A DNA stretch of 64,000 bases from Escherichia phage ECML-10, in the sequence record OL631479.1. One strand, written 5' to 3'. The notes beneath the pieces are model-generated. The model worked only from the letters and a program-made list of their open reading frames with translations. It ran no database searches and had not been told where the DNA came from. Of this stretch, positions 5,633 through 59,822 are shown one piece after another. The translations under genes were made by a program, and so were the position numbers. Within the stretch, counting starts at the first letter, position 1. Every line of letters begins with the position of its first letter.

Positions 5633-6246
5633 TGGATATTATTGTTCTTAACGCCCCACCCAGCAGTGGTAAGGATCACATTGCAGATCTCTTGTTGGAA
5701 GCTATTCCTAACTCACACCACCGTGAGGTTAAGGAGATGCTCTTCAGTGTGGCAATTAAGGCAGCTGGTGTAACTCCTCAACTCTGGAATGCACTTTATG
5801 ACCGCCACTACAAAGAAGAGCCTTGCCCTTTCTTAATGATAGACGGCAAGCATGTTTCTCCGCGAGAATGGATGATCCATTGTAGTGAAAATCTGATTAA
5901 ACCTATCTTTGGTGAAGATGCTTTCGGTAAAGCCGCAGTCGCATCTTTGAAGAAAGATTTCCCTAAAGGTAAAGGGGTTGTTGTTTACTCCGATGGTGGA
6001 TTCAAAGAGGAGCTGGCATGCCTTAGCGAGTACGCGTACAGCACAGGTGGAGATCTGTTGTTGTTCCGTATTCACCGTGTCGGATATGACTGGGGAAATG
6101 ATTCCAGAACCTATCTAAGTCTGGAAAAGAACGGAATAAAAGGAATTGAGTTCGATGTTGTAAACCCTGAAGGTGCACCTTGGGAATGTGCATCGGAGAT
6201 TGTGTGCAAGTATATTGATGCTAAAGAGGCCCAAGAAGAATGTTAA
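5632..6246 (+). CDS. deoxynucleoside monophosphate kinase (T4 gp1-like)
   Basis: N-terminal P-loop-like IVLNAPPSSGKDHIADLL resembling T4 dNMP kinase; GGAGG RBS. Confidence 0.6.
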   Translation: MDIIVLNAPPSSGKDHIADLLLEAIPNSHHREVKEMLFSVAIKAAGVTPQLWNALYDRHYKEEPCPFLMIDGKHVSPREWMIHCSENLIKPIFGEDAFGKAAVASLKKDFPKGKGVVVYSDGGFKEELACLSEYAYSTGGDLLLFRIHRVGYDWGNDSRTYLSLEKNGIKGIEFDVVNPEGAPWECASEIVCKYIDAKEAQEEC

Positions 6247-15524: not shown

Positions 15525-16652
15525 GTGTCCAGAAAACTTACAACAGATGAGTTTATAAAGAGGGCAAAAGCAGTTCATGGAGATAAGTATGATTACTCTA
15601 AGGTTGAGTATGTAAATGCCTGCACCAAGGTTATAATTATCTGCCCATATCATGGAGAATTTGAACAAGCTACCCACCAACACCTTGCAGGACGAGGCTG
15701 CCGGGAATGTGGAAAGCTAAAAATGGCACAAAGCCACATTATACCACATAAGGAGTGGTTGAATGTTATCCAAGAGGTCAATCCTTATGTCGAAGTGATT
15801 GGAGAAATAATAAGCTGCAGAACAAAAGTGCCGTGCCGCTGCAAAATTTGCAGTCATGAATGGTCAGCAATGCCTTATCTTCTTAAACAAGGACATGGGT
15901 GCCCTAGATGCGGCAAGCTAAAATTCGCACAAAGCAGAGCTATAGCCCATACCGAGTGGGTCGAGGACATAACGAAGAAAAATACATATATTGAAATAGT
16001 AGAAAGGGTTAAAAATAGCGATACACCAGTATTGGCACGATGCAAAATTTGTAGTCATGAATGGTTAGCAAGACCATCCCATCTTAAACGAGGGCATGGG
16101 TGCCCTAGATGTAAAGGCAATGCAAAGAGATCCCATGTGGAATGGGTAGGGCATATAAAGGTTGTCAATCCAAGTATTAAAGTGCTTGGAAAAATTAAAA
16201 ACGGCAGTGCAAAAGTATTATGTAGGTGTAAGATTTGTGATTATGAATGGTCTCCTGCTCCTATTAGGCTCAAGCAAGGACATGGGTGCCCTAGATGTGC
16301 TAACTACGGCTTTTTATCGTACAATCACGGCAAACTTTACATTATGGTTGATGACTTAGAAGTACCAACACTTATGAAGATCGGTATTAGCGTCAGTGTC
16401 GAAGAGAGAAAAGATAGGATATTGAAAAGTGCCAAAAGGGCAGGGGTAGGTATTTATGATCTCTACCTGGCGAAAACGTGGGAAGGATCAACTCAAAACA
16501 TGGCAGATTTAGAAAAATCTGTGCATAAGGCCTTCAGCAAGTATAAAATAAACTTCCCTGTAAAATTTGATGGTAGCACAGAATTCTTCTACTACAGGCC
16601 TGAAGTGTTTGACACGGTGGAAGAAGTATACAGGAAGATTTGTGGTAAATGA
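15525..16652 (+). CDS. zinc-ribbon repeat protein with C-terminal T5orf172/GIY-YIG-like domain (putative freestanding homing endonuclease)
   Basis: GTG start; four repeats of C-x-I-C-x-H/Y-EW...GHGCPRC; C-terminus YIMVDD...KIGIS...TEFFY. Confidence 0.5.
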   Translation: MSRKLTTDEFIKRAKAVHGDKYDYSKVEYVNACTKVIIICPYHGEFEQATHQHLAGRGCRECGKLKMAQSHIIPHKEWLNVIQEVNPYVEVIGEIISCRTKVPCRCKICSHEWSAMPYLLKQGHGCPRCGKLKFAQSRAIAHTEWVEDITKKNTYIEIVERVKNSDTPVLARCKICSHEWLARPSHLKRGHGCPRCKGNAKRSHVEWVGHIKVVNPSIKVLGKIKNGSAKVLCRCKICDYEWSPAPIRLKQGHGCPRCANYGFLSYNHGKLYIMVDDLEVPTLMKIGISVSVEERKDRILKSAKRAGVGIYDLYLAKTWEGSTQNMADLEKSVHKAFSKYKINFPVKFDGSTEFFYYRPEVFDTVEEVYRKICGK

Positions 16653-26589: not shown

Positions 26590-26636
26590 TGTTTTCAAAG
26601 AGGGTTTGGTTCCCTCTTCTTTAAAAGGAACACGTT

Positions 26637-35974: not shown

Positions 35975-36123
35975 TTTTATCGCTCTTTAAAACAAGGTGC
36001 CAACCGTTTCTAGTAGATCACTGACCACCAGGACAATACTGATCAGCACATATCTAACCATAAGGGGAAAGAGCGCCAGCGATCCCGCCACAATCCCCAA
36101 GGTAATGATTATCTTTTTCACGG

Positions 36124-36408
36124 TTAACGGTTAACGTAAGCTTTACCGTTCACGGTTATGGGTAGATCCTCCAGGTCTGGATCTTCCTTAAGGTCGCGAG
36201 CAAGCTCACCGCACCGGATACCCTCGAATCCGTAGTACTCTGTTGTACCGTCATTAAAAGTTTTAGCGGCAAGGCATAAGCGATAAGTAACCCCGATTTG
36301 ATTGACGGCATGGATATCCGTTAGATCAACCTCTTTTGCCAGCTCTTTAGCCATTACAGGCGCATTAAGTCCAACAACCAGGGCAACTACTGCGATCATC
36401 TTTTTCAT
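36124..36408 (-). CDS. secreted/periplasmic small protein
   Basis: AAAGAGGATAG RBS; N-terminal signal-peptide-like MKKMIAVVALVVGLNAPVMA. Confidence 0.5.
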   Translation of the reverse strand: MKKMIAVVALVVGLNAPVMAKELAKEVDLTDIHAVNQIGVTYRLCLAAKTFNDGTTEYYGFEGIRCGELARDLKEDPDLEDLPITVNGKAYVNR

Positions 36409-36499
36409 TGTGTCTATCCTCTTTCTGCTACGTTTAAGGCGGCGGTAACCGCCTGTTTATGTTTTGTTGGTTAATTTTCGGGTATCGGTATAAATTAAA

Positions 36500-36715
36500 C
36501 TATGCTGTACGCTCAACTATAACAACGGCTTGAGGGATCTCACCTTCAACCACTATCAAGGCTTTTTTCTGCGTGATAGATATCTTTACCCGCTTCAGTG
36601 TGGCGGTAAAATCTTTCATTTCGTCACGTGGTGTTTTAGTGCAATGCCAGATCTCGGGCTTGCCGATCTGTAAGCTGCGCAAGAATTCCGTTTTACCTGT
36701 TTTATTCGTGATCAT
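36500..36715 (-). CDS. hypothetical protein
   Basis: ATG after AAGGTGA; 71 aa. Confidence 0.4.
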   Translation of the reverse strand: MITNKTGKTEFLRSLQIGKPEIWHCTKTPRDEMKDFTATLKRVKISITQKKALIVVEGEIPQAVVIVERTA

Positions 36716-36917
36716 TTGATTCACCTTATCCAATACCGTGGGAAGATAGGATCATGTTAGCCATAGTTGCAACCACTCCAACCGATAATGCCAGGCCAAC
36801 TACTACAACCGTGAAAATTTTATCTAACATGATTCTACCCTCATTAATGGGCGTTGCCTTATTGCCCCGCCCTACGAAATACATTCTACCTGATTTACAA
36901 TTGTTGTCAAACTATTT

Positions 36918-37096
36918 TAACGATAATCATCATATGCTTTATTGACCTGGCGAATATAACATTCAAAAGCTAGATCAATAGATTTATATTCACGGATATA
37001 TTCACCATAGGAAACCACATACATTTCTATAGCTTCCTCATATGCGAGGAGAATAGAATCTAAGCCTACGATCTCAGTCTTTGCAATAATAGCCAT
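36918..37096 (-). CDS. hypothetical small protein (59 aa)
   Basis: ATG after AAAGAGGATAAAAA preceded by GC hairpin; not in the 60-aa ORF track. Confidence 0.4.
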
Positions 37097-37172
37097 GATT
37101 TTTATCCTCTTTGTGGTTGGTGGGGCTTGTTGCCCCCATTTGATTTATATATTACAGTCTTATATGGTCATG

Positions 37173-37406
37173 TCAACTATTTTCAAAAAATTTTTCTGCT
37201 GTGATATTTTTCCCGGTAGGGTTCGCTACTTTTAAAATTCTATCATGCACCGGACGCCCGAAAGAATAAGATCCGTATACAGTAAACCAATAATTGCCGT
37301 CAGGCTGTACTATTACCGTCGCATATGGTACGCCTTTTTCGTTTTTGCTGACAAAATAGATCACATTGCCATTAATAGCCTCGGCGCGTTTAATTTGTTC
37401 CATCAT
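37173..37406 (-). CDS. hypothetical protein
   Basis: AGGTGA RBS; 77 aa. Confidence 0.45.
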   Translation of the reverse strand: MMEQIKRAEAINGNVIYFVSKNEKGVPYATVIVQPDGNYWFTVYGSYSFGRPVHDRILKVANPTGKNITAEKFFENS

Positions 37407-37469
37407 GATGATTCACCTATCTTTATTTTTTCATAGTTTCAGGAGGGGGCCTTTTCGGCCCCGCCAGGT

Positions 37470-37754
37470 TTATTTATTGATAGCGTGCAGCGGGAAAGGT
37501 ACGCCAGGTTGATAGATAACCTTTACAACCTCATCAGGACAAAAGAAATTGCAGAACTCACCGCAATAGGCCTCATCCTCTTTCAACTCTTCATCAACAT
37601 ACTCAAAAAAGTAGTCGATGCTTGGATAATCTTGACCAGGGTTATAATCAACCATAGTGAGGACCAGTTCAAGATCATTGCGGATGATATGCATACCAGC
37701 TTTTAAATACTTCGCTTCCATTTTTACTACATCGCCAGCGGTAACAATAGCCAT
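37470..37754 (-). CDS. hypothetical acidic protein
   Basis: start placed at internal ATG (MAIVTAGDVV) with RBS. Confidence 0.45.
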   Translation of the reverse strand: MAIVTAGDVVKMEAKYLKAGMHIIRNDLELVLTMVDYNPGQDYPSIDYFFEYVDEELKEDEAYCGEFCNFFCPDEVVKVIYQPGVPFPLHAINK

Positions 37755-37979
37755 GGTTTTAACTCCTGTTTCTGTTAATGATTGGAGGCATAACCCCCCT
37801 CGACAACTCTTATTATCCATATTGTAGGGCTTGATGCAAGTACTTCTTTAAAAAATTTTTAAGTGCCTTGGAGGCCGCTGTAACGCCAAAATAATAAAGG
37901 CCATGCAACCGCATAGCCTTTATGTGATTATATCGCTGCAGGCCCTGCTAGGGGCCTTATTTTGCATCATTTGCCGGAA

Positions 37980-38279
37980 CTATACAGAGAAAACATCGTT
38001 CACAATAGCGATCACAATGCCGCCCACCTTGTCACGGTCAACAATGCACAAATCACCATAGATCATGTGGTAGTCTGGATGATCTTTCACGGAATAGTCA
38101 ATGAGCGTTTTCTTGTCGTCCAGCTTTGTAACTTCCATTCTCATAACGATATGAGAATCATCAAAGGCATTATTCCGAAAAGTCATAGCCTGACCACCAT
38201 GGCACCCAGTGATCTCCACTTCCACACCGTCTACGATCTGACCATTAAAGAAATAAAGATTATTAGCCAGGATAAACAT
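37980..38279 (-). CDS. hypothetical protein
   Basis: ATG after AAGGAGTG RBS. Confidence 0.45.
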   Translation of the reverse strand: MFILANNLYFFNGQIVDGVEVEITGCHGGQAMTFRNNAFDDSHIVMRMEVTKLDDKKTLIDYSVKDHPDYHMIYGDLCIVDRDKVGGIVIAIVNDVFSV

Positions 38280-38324
38280 GTTTATCACTCCTTGTTAACT
38301 GCGTGTTATTTTTACCACGATTAA

Positions 38325-38376
38325 AATTTACTTTACTGATGGCCCTGGCGTCAAGGCCATCTAAAAATAAATTTAC
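38325..38376. repeat. conserved ~50-bp intergenic stem-loop element, copy 1
   Basis: TTTACTTTACTGATGGCCCTGGCGTCAAGGCCATCTAAAAATAAATTTAC; 7-bp stem GATGGCC/GGCCATC. Confidence 0.7.
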
Positions 38377-38573
38377 AGGCCTACAATCTCTTTGATTCGT
38401 TTAACTGCTGCCTCAGCGCCTTGGGGGTAGAAATTATGGTAACCGATCACGCGAGTGATACTAATTGCAGTTTGATGATCTTCATAATAGCCCTTGAAGA
38501 TTTCTTGACCGTCAATCAGCACGGCAATTTTTTCTTCTTTTTTGAAGTTAATAACGCGGATATTGTTGCTCAT
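38373..38573 (-). CDS. hypothetical protein
   Basis: AAAGGAGAAACAAA RBS; 66 aa. Confidence 0.5.
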   Translation of the reverse strand: MSNNIRVINFKKEEKIAVLIDGQEIFKGYYEDHQTAISITRVIGYHNFYPQGAEAAVKRIKEIVGL

Positions 38574-38830
38574 TTTGTTTCTCCTTTCTGGTTTTTGTGT
38601 TGGTGGGGATTAGCTCCCCGTTGATTATTATTATCCATATTTCGGACCGGATTGCAACACCCCGGAAGAAAAATTTTTTGAAAAAGTTAGGCCCCCAGGG
38701 ATCGGGGGCCGTTATCAGTTACTTACAGCGATAAAATACATCCCTACGCCTAACAATATTTCAAGGGCGATGATCTCAAGCCATACCATAACCCGGCGCA
38801 CCTTATCGGTGCGGGGCTTATCCTTGGTTG

Positions 38831-39078
38831 TCATCGTCTCCCCCTTTCATCCTGGTAGTAGTGACGTGGTTTACAATGGCCCCCAGGAGTACCATCACCA
38901 CGCACATCACAAGAAAAATTATCTCTGTCGTTGTTCGATCCATTGTTATAAAATTCCTTAAGATCAGGCCTGAAAATAAAGCGTTCGTTATTGAATCCAT
39001 CACGCCAGGCGGCTGGCTTCAAATCTTCATCAAAGGGATTAATTAACGTGGTATTATTTAAACGGCTGGCCCACATAT
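38831..39078 (-). CDS. hypothetical protein (frame choice uncertain)
   Basis: two overlapping minus-strand ORFs here (38831-39094 and 38818-39003); neither can be preferred with confidence. Confidence 0.3.
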
Positions 39079-39425
39079 TTTCTATTCCTCTCAAATAGGC
39101 GATCCGCCTCAGTTAAACAAATCTCATGGGCGTGATCTCTGGTTTTAGCTTCATCGAAAACCTGTTGTGCAAGGCTGCAGCGTAGGGAGACTGGAAGATC
39201 ACTATAATAGGCGTTGACAAATGTTTGCGCGTCATACAGGTCGGAAAATACTTTACCCTTTCTATTATCGCCTTTGTCAACAATTGCAAGGATAACAAGT
39301 ACAATAGTTGCAACCACCCCCAGGAAAATAGATATAATAAACCATAAAAAGGCGGATCTACCCATCTTGCCAGCGATCCAGGCGTTAAACAAGGCAACTA
39401 ATACGGCCAAAATAATAAATTCCAT
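39054..39425 (-). CDS. membrane protein (two predicted TM helices)
   Basis: start at MEFIILAV after AAAGAGG; hydrophobic helices FIILAVLVALFNAWIAG and FLWFIISIFLGVVATIVLVILAIV. Confidence 0.5.
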   Translation of the reverse strand: MEFIILAVLVALFNAWIAGKMGRSAFLWFIISIFLGVVATIVLVILAIVDKGDNRKGKVFSDLYDAQTFVNAYYSDLPVSLRCSLAQQVFDEAKTRDHAHEICLTEADRLFERNRKYVGQPFK

Positions 39426-39489
39426 TCTATGTACCTCTTTTGCAGTTCTGTTTAACAATAAGGCGGCAAATATGCCGCCTGTTACCTGA

Positions 39490-39870
39490 TTAAAAATTAT
39501 CGCCGTAAATCTTTCCGCTTTCTGCCCACACCACCACGCGGGGCATACTATCCCACACGTCTTGTTTTAGATTGAGCGCGTGCAATTCTTCGGTGGTGCC
39601 CATACCAGGCACGGGCTGATTGTATACTGCAAAACGACCACCTGCATAATCATAGGCCAGGGTTAAATCACACTGAATCATCTTTTTGATCATGGCGTTG
39701 AGCATAGCGTTAGCCGCATACTGGTCACGTTTTAAAGGCAACTCTTTGATTAGTTTGCGATAGTTTTCAATGTGATCGCACACTGTTTCACGTGGAAGAT
39801 CTTTCATATCCTCGCGAAAGGTAACCAGGTTAAACATAACGGTGTCAATAGCTTTAGTAGTGTTTTTCAT
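39490..39870 (-). CDS. hypothetical protein
   Basis: AAAGAGGAAAACATT RBS; 126 aa. Confidence 0.5.
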   Translation of the reverse strand: MKNTTKAIDTVMFNLVTFREDMKDLPRETVCDHIENYRKLIKELPLKRDQYAANAMLNAMIKKMIQCDLTLAYDYAGGRFAVYNQPVPGMGTTEELHALNLKQDVWDSMPRVVVWAESGKIYGDNF

Positions 39871-39960
39871 AATGTTTTCCTCTTTGTTTTGTGTGGGGCA
39901 AACGTCTTGCCCCCCTTGAGTTTTAATATAGCAAGTTTTTAGATTATTGCAACACTTTAT

Positions 39961-40137
39961 TTATGAAAAACTCATCTCTCCATATTCATCCACATCAAAC
40001 CGCCAATCATTGGCCTCAATAAGGCCGATCAGGTTTTCGGTAGTGAACTGTTCTAGATAGGCCTCCTCCAGGTCTACGTAAACCTTGCGGGATAGCTCCC
40101 GTACCGTCTCGGTGATCAGCTCTTCCAGGTCTTCCAC
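39961..40137 (-). CDS. hypothetical small acidic protein (58 aa, GTG start)
   Basis: first ORF downstream of the minus-strand promoter at 40185-40212; weak RBS. Confidence 0.3.
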   Translation of the reverse strand: MEDLEELITETVRELSRKVYVDLEEAYLEQFTTENLIGLIEANDWRFDVDEYGEMSFS

Positions 40138-40158
40138 TTTGTTTTCTTTGTTAGTGGC

Positions 40159-40212
40159 GGGAAGTTTTCCCGTTTACATGCTTAAGTATACTTATCGAGA
40201 TTTACTTGTCAA
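40159..40212 (-). promoter_or_regulatory. sigma70-like promoter with palindromic operator-like leader
   Basis: minus strand TTGACA-16 nt-TATACT followed by GTAAACGGGAAAACTTCCC (palindrome GGGAA-aac-TTCCC). Confidence 0.55.
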
Positions 40213-40462
40213 CACTATTTTTTAAATTATTGTGGCGCAAAATGTTTAAAATCTCTTCAACGTCATCAACACGGCGGCAATTTTTAAACGCTACCAATTG
40301 CCCCAAGATTTTGATCACTGGGCGGCCTTGCCAGTGCCCCTGGAGAAAGCGCGCTTTAACTTTATCGGTGGAACTATCACGCCACCAAACTGCTTTATTA
40401 TTGCAGTAGTAAAAATTATTCAGGACAACATCAACTTTATCAAAATTTTTTAATTTACGCAT
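40202..40462 (-). CDS. hypothetical protein
   Basis: GAAGGAAGGAG RBS; 86 aa. Confidence 0.5.
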   Translation of the reverse strand: MRKLKNFDKVDVVLNNFYYCNNKAVWWRDSSTDKVKARFLQGHWQGRPVIKILGQLVAFKNCRRVDDVEEILNILRHNNLKNSVDK

Positions 40463-40707
40463 GGCGTTTACTCCTTCCTTCTTGCTTTGATGTGGTTAGT
40501 ATATCCGGACTGTTCCAAGGTGTCAATCTTTAAATAAAATCACTGTTAATGATATTTTTAACACCATAAAACGGCCCTAGGTGATGTTTTCAGGTCAATA
40601 AAGGGGATTGCATAGGTAGGGGCTTTTGTGGCGTTTGTGGGGCCAACCAGGGGCGCTATTCGTAGGATAGAAATAAAAAGCCCCGCACAATGGCGGGGCG
40701 TTGGTTG

Positions 40708-40905
40708 CTATTTGTCTTTATGGCGGTACCGTTCCGCCTGTCGTTCACGTTCCAAAAGCAGGCCCGGCAGTTTACGATCATAATGATTCCGCCAGATCTT
40801 CCCAAATCTTTTTGGCTTATTTAGTTTATTGTTACGCTGGCGGCGTTCCGGCAGCTCTTCGGAATCATGAGATCGCTTTACAATCTTTTCAAAATTAATC
40901 TTCAT
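40708..40905 (-). CDS. small highly basic protein
   Basis: ATG after AAGGGGGG; Arg/Lys-rich (RRQRNNKLNKPKRFGKIWRNHYDRK). Confidence 0.45.
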   Translation of the reverse strand: MKINFEKIVKRSHDSEELPERRQRNNKLNKPKRFGKIWRNHYDRKLPGLLLERERQAERYRHKDK

Positions 40906-41243
40906 ATATTCCCCCCTTGCTAACTTCAATATTGGCCTGAATAGCCCGGATACGGCGCTTTATAACTTCCTGATCTGTGTGATCGTATCCCCAAAAGTCT
41001 ACAATTTTTGCGCCCCCCGCTTCCAGGCGGTACAGTGTTTCCTGCATTTTGTAAGCCGGGATCGGTCGCGGTGTTACTTGGTCACCTTCTTTATTTTTAT
41101 ACTTTATAATATAATCTTCATTATCGTTGAATGTCCAAAATGGATATTCTGCAAGGGCGGTACTTTCCTTTTTATCCTGGATCTTGTTTACAATTAAAGC
41201 CGTAGCAATAGCGCCAATAATAAAACTAGCCCCGCTGATCATG
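40895..41243 (-). CDS. membrane-anchored protein
   Basis: ATG after AAAGGAGAAAG; N-terminal TM helix ISGASFIIGAIATALIV. Confidence 0.5.
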
Positions 41244-41317
41244 TACTTTCTCCTTTCATTGTGTTGATAAACTATCTTTATAGATGGCCCTGCTACCAGG
41301 ACCACCGAAAAACCAGC

Positions 41318-41563
41318 TTATTTGACGATACCGACAAAACAGATCCCGCCTTCCCCTATATAGGCAATATCGGTAATTTGATAATTTGTCAAGATCCGCG
41401 TGTTCAGATCATTAATAAAATCGGTCATCGCGTTGGTGTAGTTGTCTTCCGTGTCTAAGGCATAATCCCAGGTGTAAACCTTTTTACGTCCGAAGCCTTT
41501 TACCATGATACGGGCGCTTTTGGTGTTGGTAGGGGCATAATATTTGGTGATTAGTGCTGCCAT
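41318..41563 (-). CDS. hypothetical protein
   Basis: ATAGGAG RBS; 81 aa. Confidence 0.45.
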   Translation of the reverse strand: MAALITKYYAPTNTKSARIMVKGFGRKKVYTWDYALDTEDNYTNAMTDFINDLNTRILTNYQITDIAYIGEGGICFVGIVK

Positions 41564-41604
41564 GGTTTTAACTCCTATGCATTAGTTCAGTGTTAACAGT
41601 ATAA

Positions 41605-41656
41605 CGTTTACTTTATTGATGGCCCTGGAGTCAAGGCCATCTAAAAATAAATTTAC
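41605..41656. repeat. conserved ~50-bp intergenic stem-loop element, copy 2
   Basis: TTTACTTTATTGATGGCCCTGGAGTCAAGGCCATCTAAAAATAAATTTAC. Confidence 0.7.
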
Positions 41657-41994
41657 TCGTTTTCTTCCAGTTCTGCAAGCTCTTCTTTCACTTCTTCAAG
41701 CTCTGTATGCAATTCCTGGTATTCTTCATCGTCCTCAATATCCAGGCTGTCGATGTAGTCGCTAAATCCGCAGCGGTAAGCGATAGGATCTAGCTCCTTG
41801 AGGATACGCGACGGAAGAAAAGAAATGTTTCCGATCATAATTTCGCCGTAGATCTCGTCTAACCATTCATCATAGTTTTCGTCGTACTTGTCCTCGTCGA
41901 TTTCAAAGTTATCGATCTTGTTCTCAAGGTCTGCGATCTGTTTTTTCAGCGCGGCGATCTGCATAGCTTTTTCTGCGGCGGTCATAGTAGTCAT
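41653..41994 (-). CDS. hypothetical acidic coiled-coil protein
   Basis: AAAGGAGAAAACACT RBS; 113 aa, Glu/Asp-rich. Confidence 0.5.
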   Translation of the reverse strand: MTTMTAAEKAMQIAALKKQIADLENKIDNFEIDEDKYDENYDEWLDEIYGEIMIGNISFLPSRILKELDPIAYRCGFSDYIDSLDIEDDEEYQELHTELEEVKEELAELEENE

Positions 41995-42019
41995 AGTGTT
42001 TTCTCCTTTTGTGTGCTCT

Positions 42020-42073
42020 GGGAAGTTTTCCCGTTTACGTGTTTAAGTATATCGATCTAAGTTAGTTTGTCAA
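42020..42073 (-). promoter_or_regulatory. sigma70-like promoter with palindromic operator-like leader (paralog of 40159-40212)
   Basis: minus strand TTGACA-16 nt-TATACT followed by GTAAACGGGAAAACTTCCC. Confidence 0.55.
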
Positions 42074-42193
42074 TTAAAAATTTAAGAAAAATTTTGCAAA
42101 ACTGTTAGCGCTACTCATTAACATTTGCGCCAGGATGTAACCGACAACGCAAACGATAATAGTTATCTTTGTGTATTGGCGTGTAGTGCTCAT
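42074..42193 (-). CDS. small hydrophobic peptide (39 aa)
   Basis: ATG after AAAAAGGGGG; TM-like ITIIVCVVGYILAQMLM; not in the 60-aa ORF track. Confidence 0.35.
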   Translation of the reverse strand: MSTTRQYTKITIIVCVVGYILAQMLMSSANSFAKFFLNF

Positions 42194-42225
42194 CTTAAAG
42201 CCCCCTTTTTCGCTTAGTTGAGATT

Positions 42226-42276
42226 AGTTTACTTTATTGAAGGCCCTGGAGTCAAGGCCATCTAAAAATAAACTTA
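42226..42276. repeat. conserved ~50-bp intergenic stem-loop element, copy 3
   Basis: TTTACTTTATTGAAGGCCCTGGAGTCAAGGCCATCTAAAAATAAACTTAG. Confidence 0.7.
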
Positions 42277-42678
42277 GTAAGTTTTCAGTACTTTACCGTC
42301 CAACCTGTCAAGCTGGATCTCGATAGCTGCAGAAAACCTATTGTAAACCACATCGCCCATAGAATCCAACCAGTCTATGACATTATACACTTGCTCTTTG
42401 TTCTTGCAGGTCCGGATCCGTTTCATGATGTAAGCCGGATCAATATTGGTACTCTCGTTGGTGTTCCCCTGTACCTGGTTTGCCGTATTAGTTACATCTT
42501 TAATGGCCTTTACCACCACCTGGAATGGCTTTAAGGTGCCTTTTGCGTTCATCTCACGCGCTTTTGCGGCGCGGTTGTTATATGTTACACAACGGCGGCA
42601 AATGTTGACCAAATGCATGTCAATAATTTTTTCATCGTTTGCCAGTTCGTTCATGATGCGGCGTACGTTCTTATTCAT
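42274..42678 (-). CDS. hypothetical protein
   Basis: CAGAGGAAAAGCT RBS; 134 aa. Confidence 0.5.
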   Translation of the reverse strand: MNKNVRRIMNELANDEKIIDMHLVNICRRCVTYNNRAAKAREMNAKGTLKPFQVVVKAIKDVTNTANQVQGNTNESTNIDPAYIMKRIRTCKNKEQVYNVIDWLDSMGDVVYNRFSAAIEIQLDRLDGKVLKTY

Positions 42679-42757
42679 AGCTTTTCCTCTGTGTTGGCGG
42701 GATGTTCCCCGCCTTTTGTGTCTAGTTTACTTAAATTTTGCAGCGTGTCAATGATTT

Positions 42758-43156
42758 TTATTCGTGGGCGCATGTTACAATGTGCTTTTTATAGCCTAGG
42801 TGGTCAGCAAGTGCCGACAAAAACTCTTCTTCGTAGATCCAGCCGTCGGCAGTGATCCCCATAGCATTTAATGCGCTCTCAAGTGCTGCGTTAGCTTTAT
42901 CATAACCGTGACCGCCCGCCTTGCCGCCAGTATAGCCGTACTTATTGTTCTTGTTGTCGTGTATCCAAAAAACGCAGTAGTGAGTGTTCCCGCTGGCGGC
43001 GGCATAATACCGGATCTCAGCTACTTCGTGCAAATTATTGTCATCGTCCAGGCCCACCAGATTATAAGCCTTGTAAAATCCACGATCACGGCGGCAGTTC
43101 TTGACATCAGAAAAAGAAAAGTCCGCATTATCAAAATTAAAGGTAGTGGTTTTCAT
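42758..43156 (-). CDS. hypothetical protein
   Basis: AAGAGGATAAAATC RBS; 132 aa. Confidence 0.5.
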   Translation of the reverse strand: MKTTTFNFDNADFSFSDVKNCRRDRGFYKAYNLVGLDDDNNLHEVAEIRYYAAASGNTHYCVFWIHDNKNNKYGYTGGKAGGHGYDKANAALESALNAMGITADGWIYEEEFLSALADHLGYKKHIVTCAHE

Positions 43157-43220
43157 GATTTTATCCTCTTAGTGTCTTTTGTGCTTTTAGTGTATTTTGT
43201 GTCAGGCCATATGTCAATAC

Positions 43221-43418
43221 TTATTTTTTATTAAACCAGTGGTTGATCTGGCCTTTTGTCAGGGCGCAACGATTAAGTTGGTGCCGGGTATAGCTCTGAC
43301 CGCGACGGAATTTATAAAGGCCTTGCCCGTTGTTGATGGTTACGTCCACCTGGCAAACCATTTGATCGGTGACCACCTGGCGAGTGCTGCGACGTACTTT
43401 GATTCCGTAGGCGTTCAT
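43221..43418 (-). CDS. small basic protein
   Basis: ATG after AGAGAGGATAAAAAAATC; 65 aa. Confidence 0.45.
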   Translation of the reverse strand: MNAYGIKVRRSTRQVVTDQMVCQVDVTINNGQGLYKFRRGQSYTRHQLNRCALTKGQINHWFNKK

Positions 43419-43497
43419 GATTTTTTTATCCTCTCTGTTAATTAGTGTGGTGTTGTTCACCTTGCGAGGATAAGAATAACAAGAACTGTCCGAGCTG

Positions 43498-43657
43498 TCA
43501 ACCATTAGTTAAAATTATTTTTGCCCCTGCCAGGTTAACCATCATTTTTTCGTACTCTTCTTTATGTTCCAACGCTCCCGCCATAGCCTTTTCAACCAGG
43601 GCGATAGCCTCAGCGTCATTAATAGCTACATTTTCCAGGGGGATTATATTACCTTTC
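43498..43657 (-). CDS. hypothetical small protein (53 aa)
   Basis: ATG after GGAGGTACAAAA; not in the 60-aa ORF track. Confidence 0.4.
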
Positions 43658-43818
43658 ATTTTTGTACCTCCCCTTCAATTGTTACCTATCCTATAGCATA
43701 GGCCCACCAGGTTTACAAGCCTTCATTCTCTCCTGCCTGGTCAGTTAGGTCCTGCCAGGCTGGCCCCGCCAGGTTGCAGCGGTTAGCGCATCAGGTTAGA
43801 AAAATTTTTTGAAAAGTG

Positions 43819-43950
43819 TTGACAGCGGCCCCGCCAGGTGGCACAATATACCTATCGAAAGGACGGCAGGCACCGGTGACGGGGGAGACAACCACCGGGG
43901 ATGGGCGCTGCATAAAATGAGAACGGTTATCATTATCATTTAAAAATTTA
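43819..43950 (+). ncRNA. candidate small RNA unit 1 (promoter plus ~90-nt structured transcript)
   Basis: AT-rich UP-like tract, TTGACA-17 nt-CACAAT, then CCGGUG stem with loop containing GGGAGACAAC, ending GAGAACGGTTATCATTATCATTT; no ORF. Confidence 0.35.
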
Positions 43951-43961
43951 TGCAAAAAATC

Positions 43962-44075
43962 CTTGCTTTCTTTGTCCTGTGTGATACTATAATAACAAGC
44001 CGGGGCAACAGGGGCCGGGAGACAATCACCGGGCCTGCCCGTTATTCTGCAAACGAGAATGATTATCATTCAAAA
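43962..44075 (+). ncRNA. candidate small RNA unit 2 (paralog of unit 1)
   Basis: TATAAT at 43988, then GGGAGACAATCACCGGG and GAGAATGATTATCATT, homologous to unit 1. Confidence 0.35.
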
Positions 44076-44179
44076 TTCTAAATGAGAACTCCTCGCATTT
44101 AATAAATTTAATTAGCATGCTAATTACCCTCCGTAACAATTTCCTATAAAACAGTATCCCATAAAATATTCCCATATAG

Positions 44180-44640
44180 AAATTTTAAAAATCCATTTCT
44201 GAAAACGAAAAATCGATTTCGTCCCCAAAAATTTCAGGTCGAGATCCGGAACGATTTCCAGAAAATCCGATTCAGAAAACGAAAAACAGATCGAGTACTG
44301 AGAAATTTATCGAGAAAAATTTTCAGAAAATCCAAGCCATGAAATGAAAAGTAGATCGAGTACTTGGAAAGCTGCACCGCAACTTCAAGATAGTGGTTAG
44401 ATTGTTACCATAGAAGGTTAAGGGCAAGTGGAGGAAGTTCTAGTAGAGGGAGGTTAGCATGTGTGGGAAATCTATAATGGTGGCCTGGAATATGGTGCAA
44501 ACGATAGGATGAGTTATTCAGCTTGTCGCGCCTACTCTGAAAAATCCATTTTAGTTTTCGATCCATTTTCTGATTTTCTAAGAATTTTAAAATATCCAGC
44601 CCGGTGAAATATCAAAAGGAGGAAATCCATTTTAGAAATC
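44180..44640. repeat. iteron-like degenerate direct-repeat region
   Basis: repeated CAGAAAATCC(R)ATT, GAAAACGAAAAA and AGATCGAGTACT motifs in an AT-rich ORF-free stretch. Confidence 0.6.
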
Positions 44641-44675
44641 CCCCTTACACTTGATATGCCAGGAATTTTCAAGTA

Positions 44676-45005
44676 TCAGCTGTCTTTGTTTTTAGGTTTG
44701 TACATGCGTAAAGGTATGGTCTTTGTAACATTCCATTTCCTCAATCCTTCCCAGCTCCAGTTGTGGGCGTGGTATCCGGTTATGCATGCACTACTGGAGT
44801 GATCGTAAGCATAAGAGAACGCTAAGCGCACCAGGTGGGGCCAGTCCTTCCATGGTTGTGGACCGTAAGCTTTTCTCCAACACCGACACAAACTAAATGT
44901 CTCAAGGATAGGAAGGATAACAAACCCATACACTGTCACCAAAATAGTCAGTGCAATGATTGTCAGGAACACATACCCTGCAGTTGAAATGATGATCTCT
45001 GTCAT
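44676..45005 (-). CDS. membrane protein
   Basis: AAAGGGGA RBS; N-terminal TM helices. Confidence 0.5.
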   Translation of the reverse strand: MTEIIISTAGYVFLTIIALTILVTVYGFVILPILETFSLCRCWRKAYGPQPWKDWPHLVRLAFSYAYDHSSSACITGYHAHNWSWEGLRKWNVTKTIPLRMYKPKNKDS

Positions 45006-45199
45006 TTGTCGTCCCCTTTCTTACGGATATAAATGTGAGAACCTGCCTGTATATAAATTTCTCGACCATCTTCTGCGAAGATGTGGAATACACGGTCACC
45101 TTCGTACTCAATACGAGATATCTTCATAATGGTCTTTCCACCTGGGATACGGATCTCGTCCCCCACAGCGATGTTCCATGCAGATTTAAGCTTAAACAT
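45002..45199 (-). CDS. hypothetical protein
   Basis: ATG after GGAGGGTGCAG; 65 aa. Confidence 0.45.
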   Translation of the reverse strand: MFKLKSAWNIAVGDEIRIPGGKTIMKISRIEYEGDRVFHIFAEDGREIYIQAGSHIYIRKKGDDK

Positions 45200-45437
45200 C
45201 TGCACCCTCCTTTGGGAACTTGAACTCTGGCATAGCCATATACGCTACAACAGGGTTGTGATCAAAGTAGAACTGACCGTTAATTATCCCGGTTTTACTC
45301 ACATAGTTACCAGATCCTGCAAGAACAACCTCGCAAGCTCCGAAATCTACATTGCCATCCTCATCAGCCATGGCTACGATATACTTTCCTAGAGGCATGT
45401 TTTTAACGCCGTCTACAAATGTCCACCCTTTGTTCAT
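45192..45437 (-). CDS. hypothetical protein
   Basis: CAGGAGATAAAGT RBS; 81 aa. Confidence 0.45.
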   Translation of the reverse strand: MNKGWTFVDGVKNMPLGKYIVAMADEDGNVDFGACEVVLAGSGNYVSKTGIINGQFYFDHNPVVAYMAMPEFKFPKEGADV

Positions 45438-45457
45438 ACTTTATCTCCTGCACTTTC

Positions 45458-45790
45458 TTAAGGTAACCAGTAAACAATCTCGCCTTTCAGCTTCATGTCG
45501 TTTCCAACATAAATTTCCCAGCCATCCATCTTAGCAACTGTAGGCCCAAAGTCATCCGCACCCCTTACCTCTTTCCAGGCTCCGTAGTCAGGTTGCCAGA
45601 TATAGAATCCACCTTCTTTGTCCCATGCTCCGTACACTACGTTTAACAGGTTTCCCATTGCAACAATGGTGGGCCGTGGGAATAATACATCTACAGATGC
45701 GCCACAATTTCGGGTATCTTTTAAGTTGCAATCCCAAAAGATGTCTGCCAGTGTGGCGGCGATAGCTTTACGTCTTTCTAATGTTACCAT
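45458..45790 (-). CDS. hypothetical protein
   Basis: 110 aa ORF. Confidence 0.45.
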   Translation of the reverse strand: MVTLERRKAIAATLADIFWDCNLKDTRNCGASVDVLFPRPTIVAMGNLLNVVYGAWDKEGGFYIWQPDYGAWKEVRGADDFGPTVAKMDGWEIYVGNDMKLKGEIVYWLP

Positions 45791-45799
45791 GTATCATAC

Positions 45800-45991
45800 T
45801 CACTTGTTGTTAATAAGTTCTAAAACTTTCTGTCTTACTTTGTCAAGGTCTGTTGATTCAAAAACTGTGCGATATCCCCAACTTTGCCCATAGGAGTGAC
45901 TGCAATCTCCGTAGCACCATTGCTCAATTTGATAGTATTCAAGGAAGGGGTGCTGTCTAACTATGATGCCATCCCGGTTAAAAATTACCAT
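45800..45991 (-). CDS. hypothetical protein
   Basis: 63 aa ORF. Confidence 0.4.
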   Translation of the reverse strand: MVIFNRDGIIVRQHPFLEYYQIEQWCYGDCSHSYGQSWGYRTVFESTDLDKVRQKVLELINNK

Positions 45992-46054
45992 AATACGTCG
46001 CTCTCTGTTAGTCTGTGCGTATATTATACACTGTAGTTTTCAGATGTCAATCTT

Positions 46055-48152: not shown

Positions 48153-48214
48153 TTTTCAGATCTCCTTATACAAAAATGCCCCACCCTTTCGGGCAGGGCT
48201 ATGTTAGTTAGGTG

Positions 48215-59017: not shown

Positions 59018-59801
59018 TAATTCTGCTCCTTACTGCAGGCTCGTTTGCTAAGAATACGGCTTTTGCCCAGCCACGTGGTGTGAGGCTTCGGATCATCTTC
59101 GTTCTTGCACTCTTTCCACCCAGCTTAGCGTGTTGCATGGAGTACCCACTAACCGCGTCAACTATTTGCGGGACAGGTTTTGTGTCCGGGATTATAAATC
59201 CATTACCTATCCAGCCGCAAGTTATTTTTGGATAGGCATCACGTGGAGCTATAAATTCAGGAAACCAGGGGTTTACATCATCCTCCGGTAAATACCCGCC
59301 ATAGTCAGAAGGGTGAAAACGGTAATCAGGTTTGCGCCACAGTGTGGACATAACACCCACAGGATTCTCTACATGCCACGGGCAATCGTAAATCTCTCCT
59401 AGCTCTTCCGCAACCCGAGCATCCTTTACAGCATTAATTTGGATCAAAGGATCCTTAGCCAGCTTTTTCTTAAAATGTGCAGCACCTGATACCGCTAAAT
59501 GCGTGCACGGAGGAAATGCAAGAATAAAGTCTGGAGCTGGATACATGCAAAAAGTTTCCTGAGGGAACCATGGGTCAATCCAATAATCCACATAGTGAAT
59601 GTTAGGATGATCGGTTATCACCTCTGCATAACTGCCGTGGTCAGCACCTTCTGCATTAAAGCACAGGTACAGGTACCCAGCTTTTGCCCAGTCAATAACT
59701 GCACCACCAGACCCGTCAAATAGACTCCACACAACACCTTTGTGGTAGTGTTCTTTGTAGATGAATTTCAATTTGCTGTCTCCTAATGCAAAAAGCCCCA
59801 C
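59007..59801 (-). CDS. compact DNA (cytosine-5)-methyltransferase-like protein
   Basis: motif I WSLFDGSGG, motif IV FPPCTH (catalytic Cys), motif VI ENPVG; only 264 aa. Confidence 0.5.
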   Translation of the reverse strand: MGLFALGDSKLKFIYKEHYHKGVVWSLFDGSGGAVIDWAKAGYLYLCFNAEGADHGSYAEVITDHPNIHYVDYWIDPWFPQETFCMYPAPDFILAFPPCTHLAVSGAAHFKKKLAKDPLIQINAVKDARVAEELGEIYDCPWHVENPVGVMSTLWRKPDYRFHPSDYGGYLPEDDVNPWFPEFIAPRDAYPKITCGWIGNGFIIPDTKPVPQIVDAVSGYSMQHAKLGGKSARTKMIRSLTPRGWAKAVFLANEPAVRSRINGK

Positions 59802-59822
59802 CCTTTCGGGCAGGGCCTAGTG

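Follow-up and report, generated by a model that had tools for sequence, protein, structure and literature searches.

What does a short repeated hairpin do when it lies directly behind the stop codons of several small early phage genes? The question is raised by a 64,000-nucleotide stretch of DNA from Escherichia phage ECML-10 (OL631479.1; this whole stretch is called the window here), in which an element of about 50 bp recurs between minus-strand genes from position 38322 to 42277. We established that the element exists in four copies on the coding strand, that these copies share a conserved and covarying structure with a pronounced strand bias, that the element is confined to the genus Vequintavirus, and that recombination between copies has left its products in related genomes. 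The explanation that we prefer, and to which we give about an even chance of being correct, is a composite resembling the promoter-early stem-loops (PeSLs) of T4-type phages: an intercistronic hairpin in the sense-strand RNA that would be read through by transcription and act post-transcriptionally, a weak σ70 promoter superimposed on three of the copies, and recombination that shuffles the adjoining ORFans.

ECML-10 is an rV5-like E. coli myovirus (Vequintavirus), and region 37500–43000 of the window shows 92–96% identity to rV5, JES2013, navn, and ~120 other records. The element is found here in a run of small minus-strand genes (rV5 ORF178–195) that forms part of the early, hyperplastic portion of the genome. 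Three near-identical copies of ~52 bases lie at 38322–38376 (A), 41602–41656 (B), and 42223–42277 (C), no more than 1 nt from positions 38325, 41605, and 42226 at which an initial sequence-only reading of the window had placed them; a fourth, diverged copy (64% identity), which that reading had overlooked, lies at 41267–41321, where the ORF191 homolog is followed by that of ORF190, and its register relative to a TAA stop codon is the same. All four copies are on the minus strand and start at the TAA of a small early gene, namely the homologs of ORF179 (38375–38373) for copy A, ORF192 (41655–41653) for copy B, ORF194 (42276–42274) for copy C, and ORF191 (41320–41318) for the fourth copy. They end 17–36 nt before the next Shine-Dalgarno (SD) sequence, which for the ORF190 homolog behind the fourth copy is at 41255–41250, with the ATG at 41242; the reading was therefore right that the copies directly follow minus-strand stop codons and precede the next ribosome-binding site. 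It had also proposed a genome-wide motif search, which we ran with the core pattern and with a covariance model of the family, recovering four copies in the window. The core GATGGCC-N10-GGCCATC matched four times with at most two mismatches (0.09 expected in 64 kb), and an 18-mer core matched three times (0.04 expected). The covariance model, with filters off, reported exactly the four copies and nothing else below E = 3, with scores of 71–76 bits on the sense strand versus 27–39 bits on the antisense strand (73.7 bits for copy A at 38324–38375, 73.6 for copy B at 41604–41655, 75.8 for copy C at 42225–42276, and 70.8 for the fourth copy at 41267–41321, all minus strand), and it found no further copy in the other 76 kb of rV5.

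Folded as sense-strand RNA, every copy forms a lower stem, a 2 × 3 internal loop (2 nt on the 5′ side and 3 nt on the 3′ side), a 10-bp upper stem, and a tetraloop. The lower stem has 8–14 pairs, mostly A–U, with the stop codon at its 5′ end, and the upper stem is GC-rich with one U–G pair. In copy A, the lower stem pairs 38374–38364 with 38334–38324 and the upper stem pairs 38361–38352 with 38347–38338 around the tetraloop ACGC (38351–38348); the corresponding segments are 41654–41644/41614–41604, 41641–41632/41627–41618, and ACUC at 41631–41628 in copy B, and 42275–42265/42235–42225, 42262–42253/42248–42239, and a tetraloop at 42252–42249 in copy C, which in ECML-10 has one U–U mismatch (A→T at 42241). 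The fourth copy consists of the hairpin only, with lower stem 41321–41309/41279–41267, upper stem GGUGGUCCUG/CAGGGCCAUC at 41306–41297/41292–41283, and loop GUAG. The sequence-only reading had described a 7-bp stem with a 10-nt loop between symmetric T-rich and A-rich flanks. The core pattern and flanks are present in the plus-strand view, but the sense strand forms a 10-bp stem with one U–G pair and a tetraloop, and the two flanks, as that reading had missed, pair with each other to make the lower stem of 8–14 bp. Predicted folding energies for the sense strand were −21 to −24 kcal/mol (z-scores of −4.6 to −5.8), whereas the antisense strand folded much worse (z-scores of −1.0 to −3.0) because the wobble pairs turn into A–C mismatches. 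A sliding 60-nt minimum-free-energy scan of both strands of the whole window was uninformative, as GC-rich coding sequence folds equally well.

Natural variants indicate what has been conserved. Copies were collected from 18 Vequintavirus loci, comprising GenBank isolates picked for diversity and metagenomic contigs, and all 41 unique variants adopt the same two-tier architecture. In a gap-free alignment of 30 distinct sequences, 95.7% of the cells assigned to pairs were paired on the sense strand, compared to 36–56% when partners were slid by 1–3 columns and 83.8% on the antisense strand; the non-Watson-Crick cells included 83 G–U but 8 A–C combinations. Four lower-stem pairs (8–54, 9–53, 11–51, and 12–50) have changed on both sides, with pair 8–54 occurring as G–C, A–U, or G–U, and the covariation score of 0.192 (0.127 in shuffles) was reached by 0 of 500 shuffled alignments. 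Variation among main-type copies (A, B, and C) sits in loop positions 3–4, the internal loop, and the outer ends. The lower stem of the fourth type exists as two haplotypes with paired substitutions (GCUG/UAGU versus GUUA/UAAU), and in its upper stem three pairs are changed on one side relative to the main type, the pairing being maintained by wobble in each case. Main and fourth types share an invariant 2 × 3 internal loop and 3′ arm CAGGGCCAUCnAUAAAG. Between genomes, gapless comparison gave a diversity of 0.02–0.06 for the main-type element and 0.14–0.18 for the adjacent downstream spacer, a 3–8-fold reduction to which gene conversion contributes. The conserved pairing, the two-sided changes, and the excess of G–U over A–C suggest that the hairpin is selected in the sense-strand RNA. 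The fourth type contains neither TTGAC nor any −10 hexamer, yet both of its stems have been kept by compensatory changes; the hairpin therefore appears to be selected without a promoter.

Does such a hairpin stop transcription? Behind the stem, the sense strand continues with AAUAAAGUAAA and the antisense strand with UAAAAAUAAAU, so that the statement in the sequence-only reading that a U-run is lacking on either strand holds, and a terminator scan of the region listed none of the four copies. A canonical intrinsic terminator with stem GCCCCGC…GCGGGGC and tail UUUUUAUUU lies at 40680–40699 (minus strand) and ends the transcription unit that holds copy B and the fourth copy. We rejected an intrinsic terminator as the identity of the element, since the hairpin is present without the U-run that genuine terminators nearby possess. 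No promoter lies in the spacer of the fourth copy, so that expression of the ORF190 homolog and of the genes that follow it as far as the terminator at 40699 would need read-through, and transcription begun at the canonical promoter at 42073 would also have to pass copy B. From this layout of genes and promoters, efficient termination at the hairpins seems unlikely. Hairpins thus placed within operons usually serve in processing or 3′-end protection. Two other modes of action were considered and rejected: antitermination of the nut/put type, as boxA- and boxB-like features are missing, and a translational operator, as the hairpins end 17–36 nt ahead of the SD sequence.

In the sense orientation, main copies A, B, and C carry a UP-like tract AAATTTATTTTT, 9 nt, a −35-like hexamer TTGAC(T/G/A), 18 nt, and a −10-like hexamer TAAA(C/T)T. 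The σ70-like pair is TTGACG (38354–38349) and TAAATT (38330–38325) in copy A, with 9 of 12 consensus positions; TTGACT (41634–41629) and TAAACG (41610–41605) in copy B; and TTGACT (42255–42250) and TAAACT (42231–42226) in copy C, again 9 of 12, with the UP-like tract AAGTTTATTTTT upstream. UP elements have the consensus AAAWWTWTTTT at −57 to −47, which the T-rich tract of the main copies matches and near which, at about −56 to −46, it would sit. TTGAC is unchanged in each of the 21 distinct variants of the main type, in contrast to the two loop bases that follow it, which vary; the U26–G35 pair is kept in the main type although C–G would be more stable and is acceptable there in the fourth type; and the first base of the −10-like hexamer is T in the main type only. 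PhagePromoter chose the same hexamers in phage Gotham at the sites homologous to copies A and B. The three main-type spacers have no promoter candidate other than the element itself, and the fourth-copy spacer lacks −35- and −10-like hexamers as well as any promoter candidate. The region's canonical early promoters match 10–12 of 12 positions with spacers of 16–17 nt. From these sequence features, the odds that the main copies are active as promoters seem roughly even. A phage-specific promoter, which the sequence-only reading had listed among possible functions, finds no support: these phages encode no RNA polymerase (PMC7344957), the promoters described for rV5 are σ70-like (PMC3606486), and the features here are of the host σ70 type with a 9/12 match. 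We also rejected a T4-late-type promoter, as TATAAATA is absent from the main type.

Being near-identical direct repeats, the copies recombine, which the sequence-only reading had not noticed. Between copies C and B lies a 0.6-kb cassette (41657–42224, minus strand) with the ORF193 homolog (42193–42074), a canonical early promoter with leader hairpin (TTGACA-16-TATACT, 42073–42046), and the ORF192 homolog (41994–41653). In ECP32, phiWec189, magaca, and IMGVR_UViG_2051223002_000007, this ORF193–promoter–ORF192 cassette is missing and ORF194 is followed by one chimeric element and then ORF191; the element accounts for this recurrent gain and loss of the cassette among genomes that are 92–96% identical. 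In rV5, IMGVR_3300010279, slur16, APECc02, phiWec193, and V18, the same rare variant occurs in two copies of one genome, which indicates gene conversion. In the evolved derivative rV5_ev146 (LR699804), only copy B and the fourth copy are kept, the regions of copies A and C being rearranged or deleted relative to rV5.

By blastn, the element was found in Vequintavirus records only, in 120 records with about three matching places in each genome. When IMG/VR and JGI metagenomes were scanned for the exact core, a few additional natural variants were gained, and otherwise only rV5-like contigs plus chance 17-mers in GC-rich DNA were returned. A blastn search (word size 11, E ≤ 0.1) of 5,426 complete E. 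coli genomes (20,395 records) found no match, and we accordingly rejected an origin from a host REP-like sequence. An E-value scan of 36000–46000 against Rfam yielded no hit on any copy. Distant homologs of the ORF192 protein (40–61% identity) in viral contigs are in no case followed by the element, which therefore does not travel with this gene.

When 87–148 kb of relatives were searched with the Vequintavirus model (R1), the best match outside the genus, at E values of only 0.14–0.23, was directly after a stop codon in Av-05 (Avunavirus). Its flanks resemble those of the element described here (AGTTGTCTTTTAG versus AGTTTATTTTTAG and ATAAAAGAAACT versus ATAAAGTAAACT), and its upper stem differs. 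The Av-05 element is linked by blastn (E values of 4e-10 to 1e-3) to elements in Klebsiella phages and Salmonella phage SSBI34, giving a set of carriers (Av-05; Klebsiella phages 05F01, KP13-26, and phi1_175008; SSBI34) with several copies per genome. Sites in these relatives include, by locus, L153 2917–2980, 3172–3235, 6011–6075, 7928–7990, and 8613–8675; L154 6011, 6353, and 6586; L156 6010 and 6352; L155 748, 1464, 3661, 4590, 5227, and 6009; L151 19987 and 16936 (minus strand); and L150 18325 (minus strand). These elements contain a canonical promoter, TTGAC(T/G)-16/17-TATAAT-like with 10–12 of 12 matches, whose −35, located in the lower arm on the 5′ side, pairs with a GAAAC tract further downstream and whose −10 forms the apical loop of a covarying stem of 10–13 bp. 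On the coding strand, 19 distinct elements contain 178 Watson-Crick, 37 G–U, and 2 A–C combinations, and RNAalifold predicted 19 pairs, of which 11 show compensatory changes. The promoter part corresponds to a published Certrevirus motif, AAAA(N3)TGTTGAC(N19)TATAAT, in a paper whose text nowhere mentions a hairpin or stem-loop (PMC7344957); this aspect of the promoters is apparently undescribed.

Like the Vequintavirus element, the elements of the related genera lie on the coding strand and begin at the stop codon of a small early ORF; they fold into a long hairpin whose 5′ arm is T-rich, whose 3′ arm is A-rich, and whose upper stem is GC-rich, and they show the same strong bias of G–U over A–C. 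They differ in that the Vequintavirus tetraloop (ACNC or GUAG) holds no −10 and TTTATT stands at the relatives' −35 position. A model of 16 related-genera elements (R2), run with filters off, found none of the four window copies at E ≤ 10 and instead scored plain UP/−35 motifs of plus-strand promoters. Homology of the Vequintavirus element to this family is plausible from the resemblance, but because R2 does not find the window copies we do not claim it and use the family as an analogy and not as a classification. We also rejected an 'inverse terminator' as a general class in phi92 or Phapecoctavirus, where this architecture was rare in a scan with relaxed thresholds. Within the window, an isolated hairpin at 26597–26619 (GAAGAGGGAACCAAACCCUCUUU, with T-rich and A-rich flanks) meets relaxed criteria for this architecture on both strands, and its sequence is unrelated to the element.

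How might these features work together? From the comparisons above, we infer an RNA-level role, transcriptional read-through, promoter activity in the main copies, and involvement of RNase III, in the following scheme. Host RNA polymerase would start at strong canonical early promoters upstream and transcribe through the element; the sense transcript would fold into the two-tier hairpin of ~20 bp, with the upstream gene's stop codon as its base, and transcription would continue past it because no U-tract follows. The hairpin would then be a post-transcriptional processing structure, a structure protecting 3′ ends, or both, and would uncouple the fates of the upstream and downstream cistrons. 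As a specific guess, an RNase III-type cleavage at the strictly conserved 2 × 3 internal loop could yield an upstream mRNA that carries the upper stem as a cap. The moderate σ70 promoter superimposed on copies A, B, and C could contribute additional transcripts of the gene downstream; the fourth copy is a hairpin only. Recombination between copies would homogenize them and delete or insert the intervening cassette of small genes. Among the functions that the sequence-only reading had suggested, a processing site is thus the preferred one, based on the selection of the sense RNA, the intercistronic position, the lack of a terminator tail, and the RNase III-like geometry, with cleavage itself as a prediction.

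Several points weigh against this scheme. Involvement of RNase III is a guess from geometry. The near-identity of the three main copies may reflect gene conversion instead of selection. The G–U bias would also fit a hairpin in single-stranded non-template DNA, where G–T is tolerated, and could be inflated by strand-biased C→T mutation. The promoter match of the main copies, 9 of 12 with an 18-nt spacer, is at the noise floor of the scan (48 sites versus 33 ± 6 expected), and the −10-like hexamer of copy B in ECML-10 is TAAACG, without the key final T, whereas other genomes have TAAACT. Individual copies are dispensable: four genomes do without one copy, and in Gotham an 8-nt deletion (…TTGACTCCAATCAATAAAG…) in copy C (Gotham 5660–5725) takes away the greater part of the upper stem's 3′ arm, ruining both the hairpin and the −35/−10 spacing in a viable isolate. 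Finally, our literature search found no transcriptome, transcription-start-site, or transcript-end data for any Vequintavirus.

Other explanations account for parts of these observations. If the element were a classical PeSL, the stem-loop would attenuate or terminate upstream transcription and the embedded σ70 promoter would restart it, making each small gene its own unit; the definition of a PeSL fits the layout here, which extends from one gene's stop codon to the start codon of the next within a hyperplastic early region, the three main-type spacers lack another promoter candidate, and a PeSL stem-loop from RB49 lowered downstream lacZ expression as strongly as rrnB T1 (PMC2839356). We nevertheless think this unlikely, as the stem is followed by AAUAAAGUAAA and not by the U-tract that real terminators of the region have, the promoter match is weak (9/12), and an efficient stop at the promoter-less fourth copy would silence the ORF190 homolog and the genes behind it. 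That same copy bears on a plain σ70 early promoter with a UP element, in which the inverted repeat would be incidental or would matter in DNA only: it has lost the hexamers and kept the hairpin with compensatory changes. The UP-like AAATTTATTTTT, the invariant TTGAC with TAAAYT at 18 nt, the end of between-copy similarity exactly behind the −10-like hexamer, and the software prediction in Gotham all favor such a promoter, but the excess of G–U over A–C is strand-specific, the A–U lower stem covaries, and the main copies reach 9/12 where canonical early promoters reach 10–12/12 at 16–17 nt, so that we regard it as very unlikely. We give equally little probability to a selfish or neutral repeat, a decayed promoter–hairpin relic kept similar by gene conversion whose sole consequence would be homology for gain and loss of cassettes. 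Concerted evolution in six genomes, cassette loss in four, the destruction of one copy in Gotham with viability kept, confinement to one genus, and, if the relationship to Av-05 is real, TTTATT at the old −35 position and a loop without −10 are what such a relic would leave; against it stand the fourth type, whose substitutions are compensatory or wobble-only and which lacks a near-identical copy for conversion, the 2 × 3 internal loop and 3′ arm CAGGGCCAUCnAUAAAG invariant across both types, and retention of all four sites in about 120 genomes.

A site acting in DNA would explain the imperfect palindrome of 24 + 24 nt with half-sites GATGGCC/GGCCATC. It could be an operator at which a dimeric regulator of phage or host binds, or else a cruciform or a hairpin of the non-template strand by which bases of the promoter are presented to RNA polymerase. 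DNA hairpins tolerate G–T mismatches, and in the related genera the −10 lies exactly in the loop, where a non-template-strand hairpin could expose it. The Vequintavirus loop holds no −10, however, no candidate regulator is linked to the element, whose flanking genes are all ORFans, and the three one-sided substitutions in the upper stem of the fourth type break the dyad symmetry of the DNA while keeping the pairing of the RNA. We consider sites of this kind extremely unlikely, and the protein-binding site suggested by the sequence-only reading is likewise disfavored, since substitutions break the palindrome yet preserve pairing on one strand through G–U (83 G–U versus 8 A–C). In a different extension of the RNA-level explanation, which we think quite unlikely, the hairpin would serve specifically as a signal for RNA processing or as an insulator, either cleaved by RNase III or recognized by a phage factor that binds it, and in the wider set of rV5/phi92-related phages this signal would be wrapped around a whole σ70 promoter. 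Cleavage would then give read-through transcripts nearly the same 5′ end as transcripts initiated at the promoter, and in Vequintavirus the original promoter would have decayed while the RNA signal persisted, three copies having evolved a new −35 inside the stem-loop. If this were true, a promoter inside a covarying RNA hairpin would be a distinct and widespread regulatory design and not a chance overlap.

Other sequences in the window show further repeats and hairpins. As judged from the homologous FV3 region, the early-region spacers of 60–90 nt mostly have a canonical promoter 3–9 nt after the stop codon and then a small GC leader hairpin. In the window, TTGACA-16/17-TATACT promoters at 40159–40212 and 42020–42073 (minus strand) are followed at about +8 by a small GC hairpin such as GGGAAAACUUCCC or GGCGGGAAUGUUUCCCGCC; the GC hairpin in the 5′ leader is probably an mRNA-stabilizing 5′ stem-loop, and the combination is a second promoter-plus-hairpin design in the early region. 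At 44170–44370, in the minus-strand sense, three imperfect repeats of ~65 nt (AGTACTCGATCT…TTTTCGTTTTCTGAA…GGATTTTCTGAAAATTT) occupy a non-coding gap of ~300 nt, the sole long gene-free stretch of the early region. TRF detects just a 12-nt sub-repeat in these repeats, which FV3 has in conserved form. Candidate functions are iterons, an origin, or an array of binding sites for a regulator. A terminator-like hairpin, AAAAAGCCCCACCCTTTCGGGCAGGGC, occurs in two 96%-identical copies 11.6 kb apart (48173–48199 and 59790–59816), and a 134-nt direct repeat is present three times at 15777–16297 (68–70% identity, spacing of 186–201 nt), where it probably represents repeated coding modules.

Phages related to rV5 are widely used in typing E. 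coli O157 and in therapy cocktails. Their early region is annotated as hypothetical genes with software-predicted promoters only, and the element supplies a defined RNA signal in these early operons. The proteins of this gene run (rV5 ORF178–195), those that flank the element included, are all of unknown function: PHROG places them only in families without an assigned function, and Pfam finds no domain in them. In the rV5 record the sites of copies A, B, and C carry no annotation. The element goes unmentioned in the rV5 genome paper, whose account covers only promoters that are all σ70-like, a T4-late-like motif, and rho-independent terminators (PMC3606486). The element is useful as annotation without representing a novel type; it carries the PeSL concept past the T4-like phages, overturns nothing known, and points to a larger, apparently undescribed family of promoters in hairpins in related Klebsiella, Salmonella, and E. 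coli phages.

How does the element compare with known systems? It shares with intrinsic terminators a GC-rich stem-loop right after a stop codon with A/T tracts at the flanks, but the order of the tracts is inverted, U-rich on the 5′ side and A-rich on the 3′ side, on both strands. The REP/BIME palindromes of E. coli, which are thought to shield upstream mRNA from 3′ exonucleases, are also repeated imperfect palindromes with G–U pairs just past stop codons inside operons; the element here differs in being phage-specific, in having four copies, and in its longer two-tier stem. A mimic of a type III antitoxin, as in phage ΦTE, was rejected because the copies are dispersed and not tandem and form a simple hairpin. 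A geometric parallel is offered by the RNase III sites of early phage mRNAs, reportedly described for T7 (R0.3–R1.3) by Dunn and Studier in 1983 and for SP82, with three near-identical Bs-RNase III sites, by Panganiban and Whiteley in 1983. Those sites are likewise intercistronic hairpins of ~50–60 nt in early polycistronic transcripts, similar from site to site, with upper and lower stems of ~10 bp and a small asymmetric internal loop, and they leave a stabilizing 3′ hairpin on the upstream mRNA. All 41 variants of the element have the geometry expected of an RNase III substrate, an interrupted helix of ~20 bp with an internal loop between cistrons, although the resemblance is geometric only: there is no sequence similarity, and the lower stem here is almost pure A–U.

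PeSLs are the nearest known counterpart of the element. Those of the T4-type phages RB49/phi1, PST/T4, and nt-1/KVP40 run from stop codon to start codon with an AT-rich tract, a −35, a stem-loop, a −10, and an SD sequence (Arbiol et al., 2010, PMC2839356; Comeau et al., 2014, PMC4122927), and the RB49 stem-loop cut downstream lacZ expression to the same extent as rrnB T1 (PMC2839356). Both they and the element described here are short repeated intergenic cassettes among ORFans in the hyperplastic early region of a large lytic myovirus, both have a stable stem-loop at a promoter or promoter-like sequence (here enclosing the −35-like hexamer), and in both recombination between neighboring copies deletes or inserts ORFans, as seen here in four genomes. 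The differences are that the sequence and the phage subfamily are unrelated; that the promoter here is weak (9/12, 18-nt spacer) and missing in one copy, whereas that of PeSLs is near-consensus; that a two-tier A–U and G–C hairpin surrounds the −35, whereas PeSLs have a polyG/polyC stem at the −10; that there are only four copies here, clustered within 4 kb; and that the evidence favors a read-through RNA hairpin over a terminator. Because the strong promoter of a PeSL is not clearly present and terminator activity is doubtful, we file the element as PeSL-like: by analogy, it works like a PeSL and is not a member of that class.

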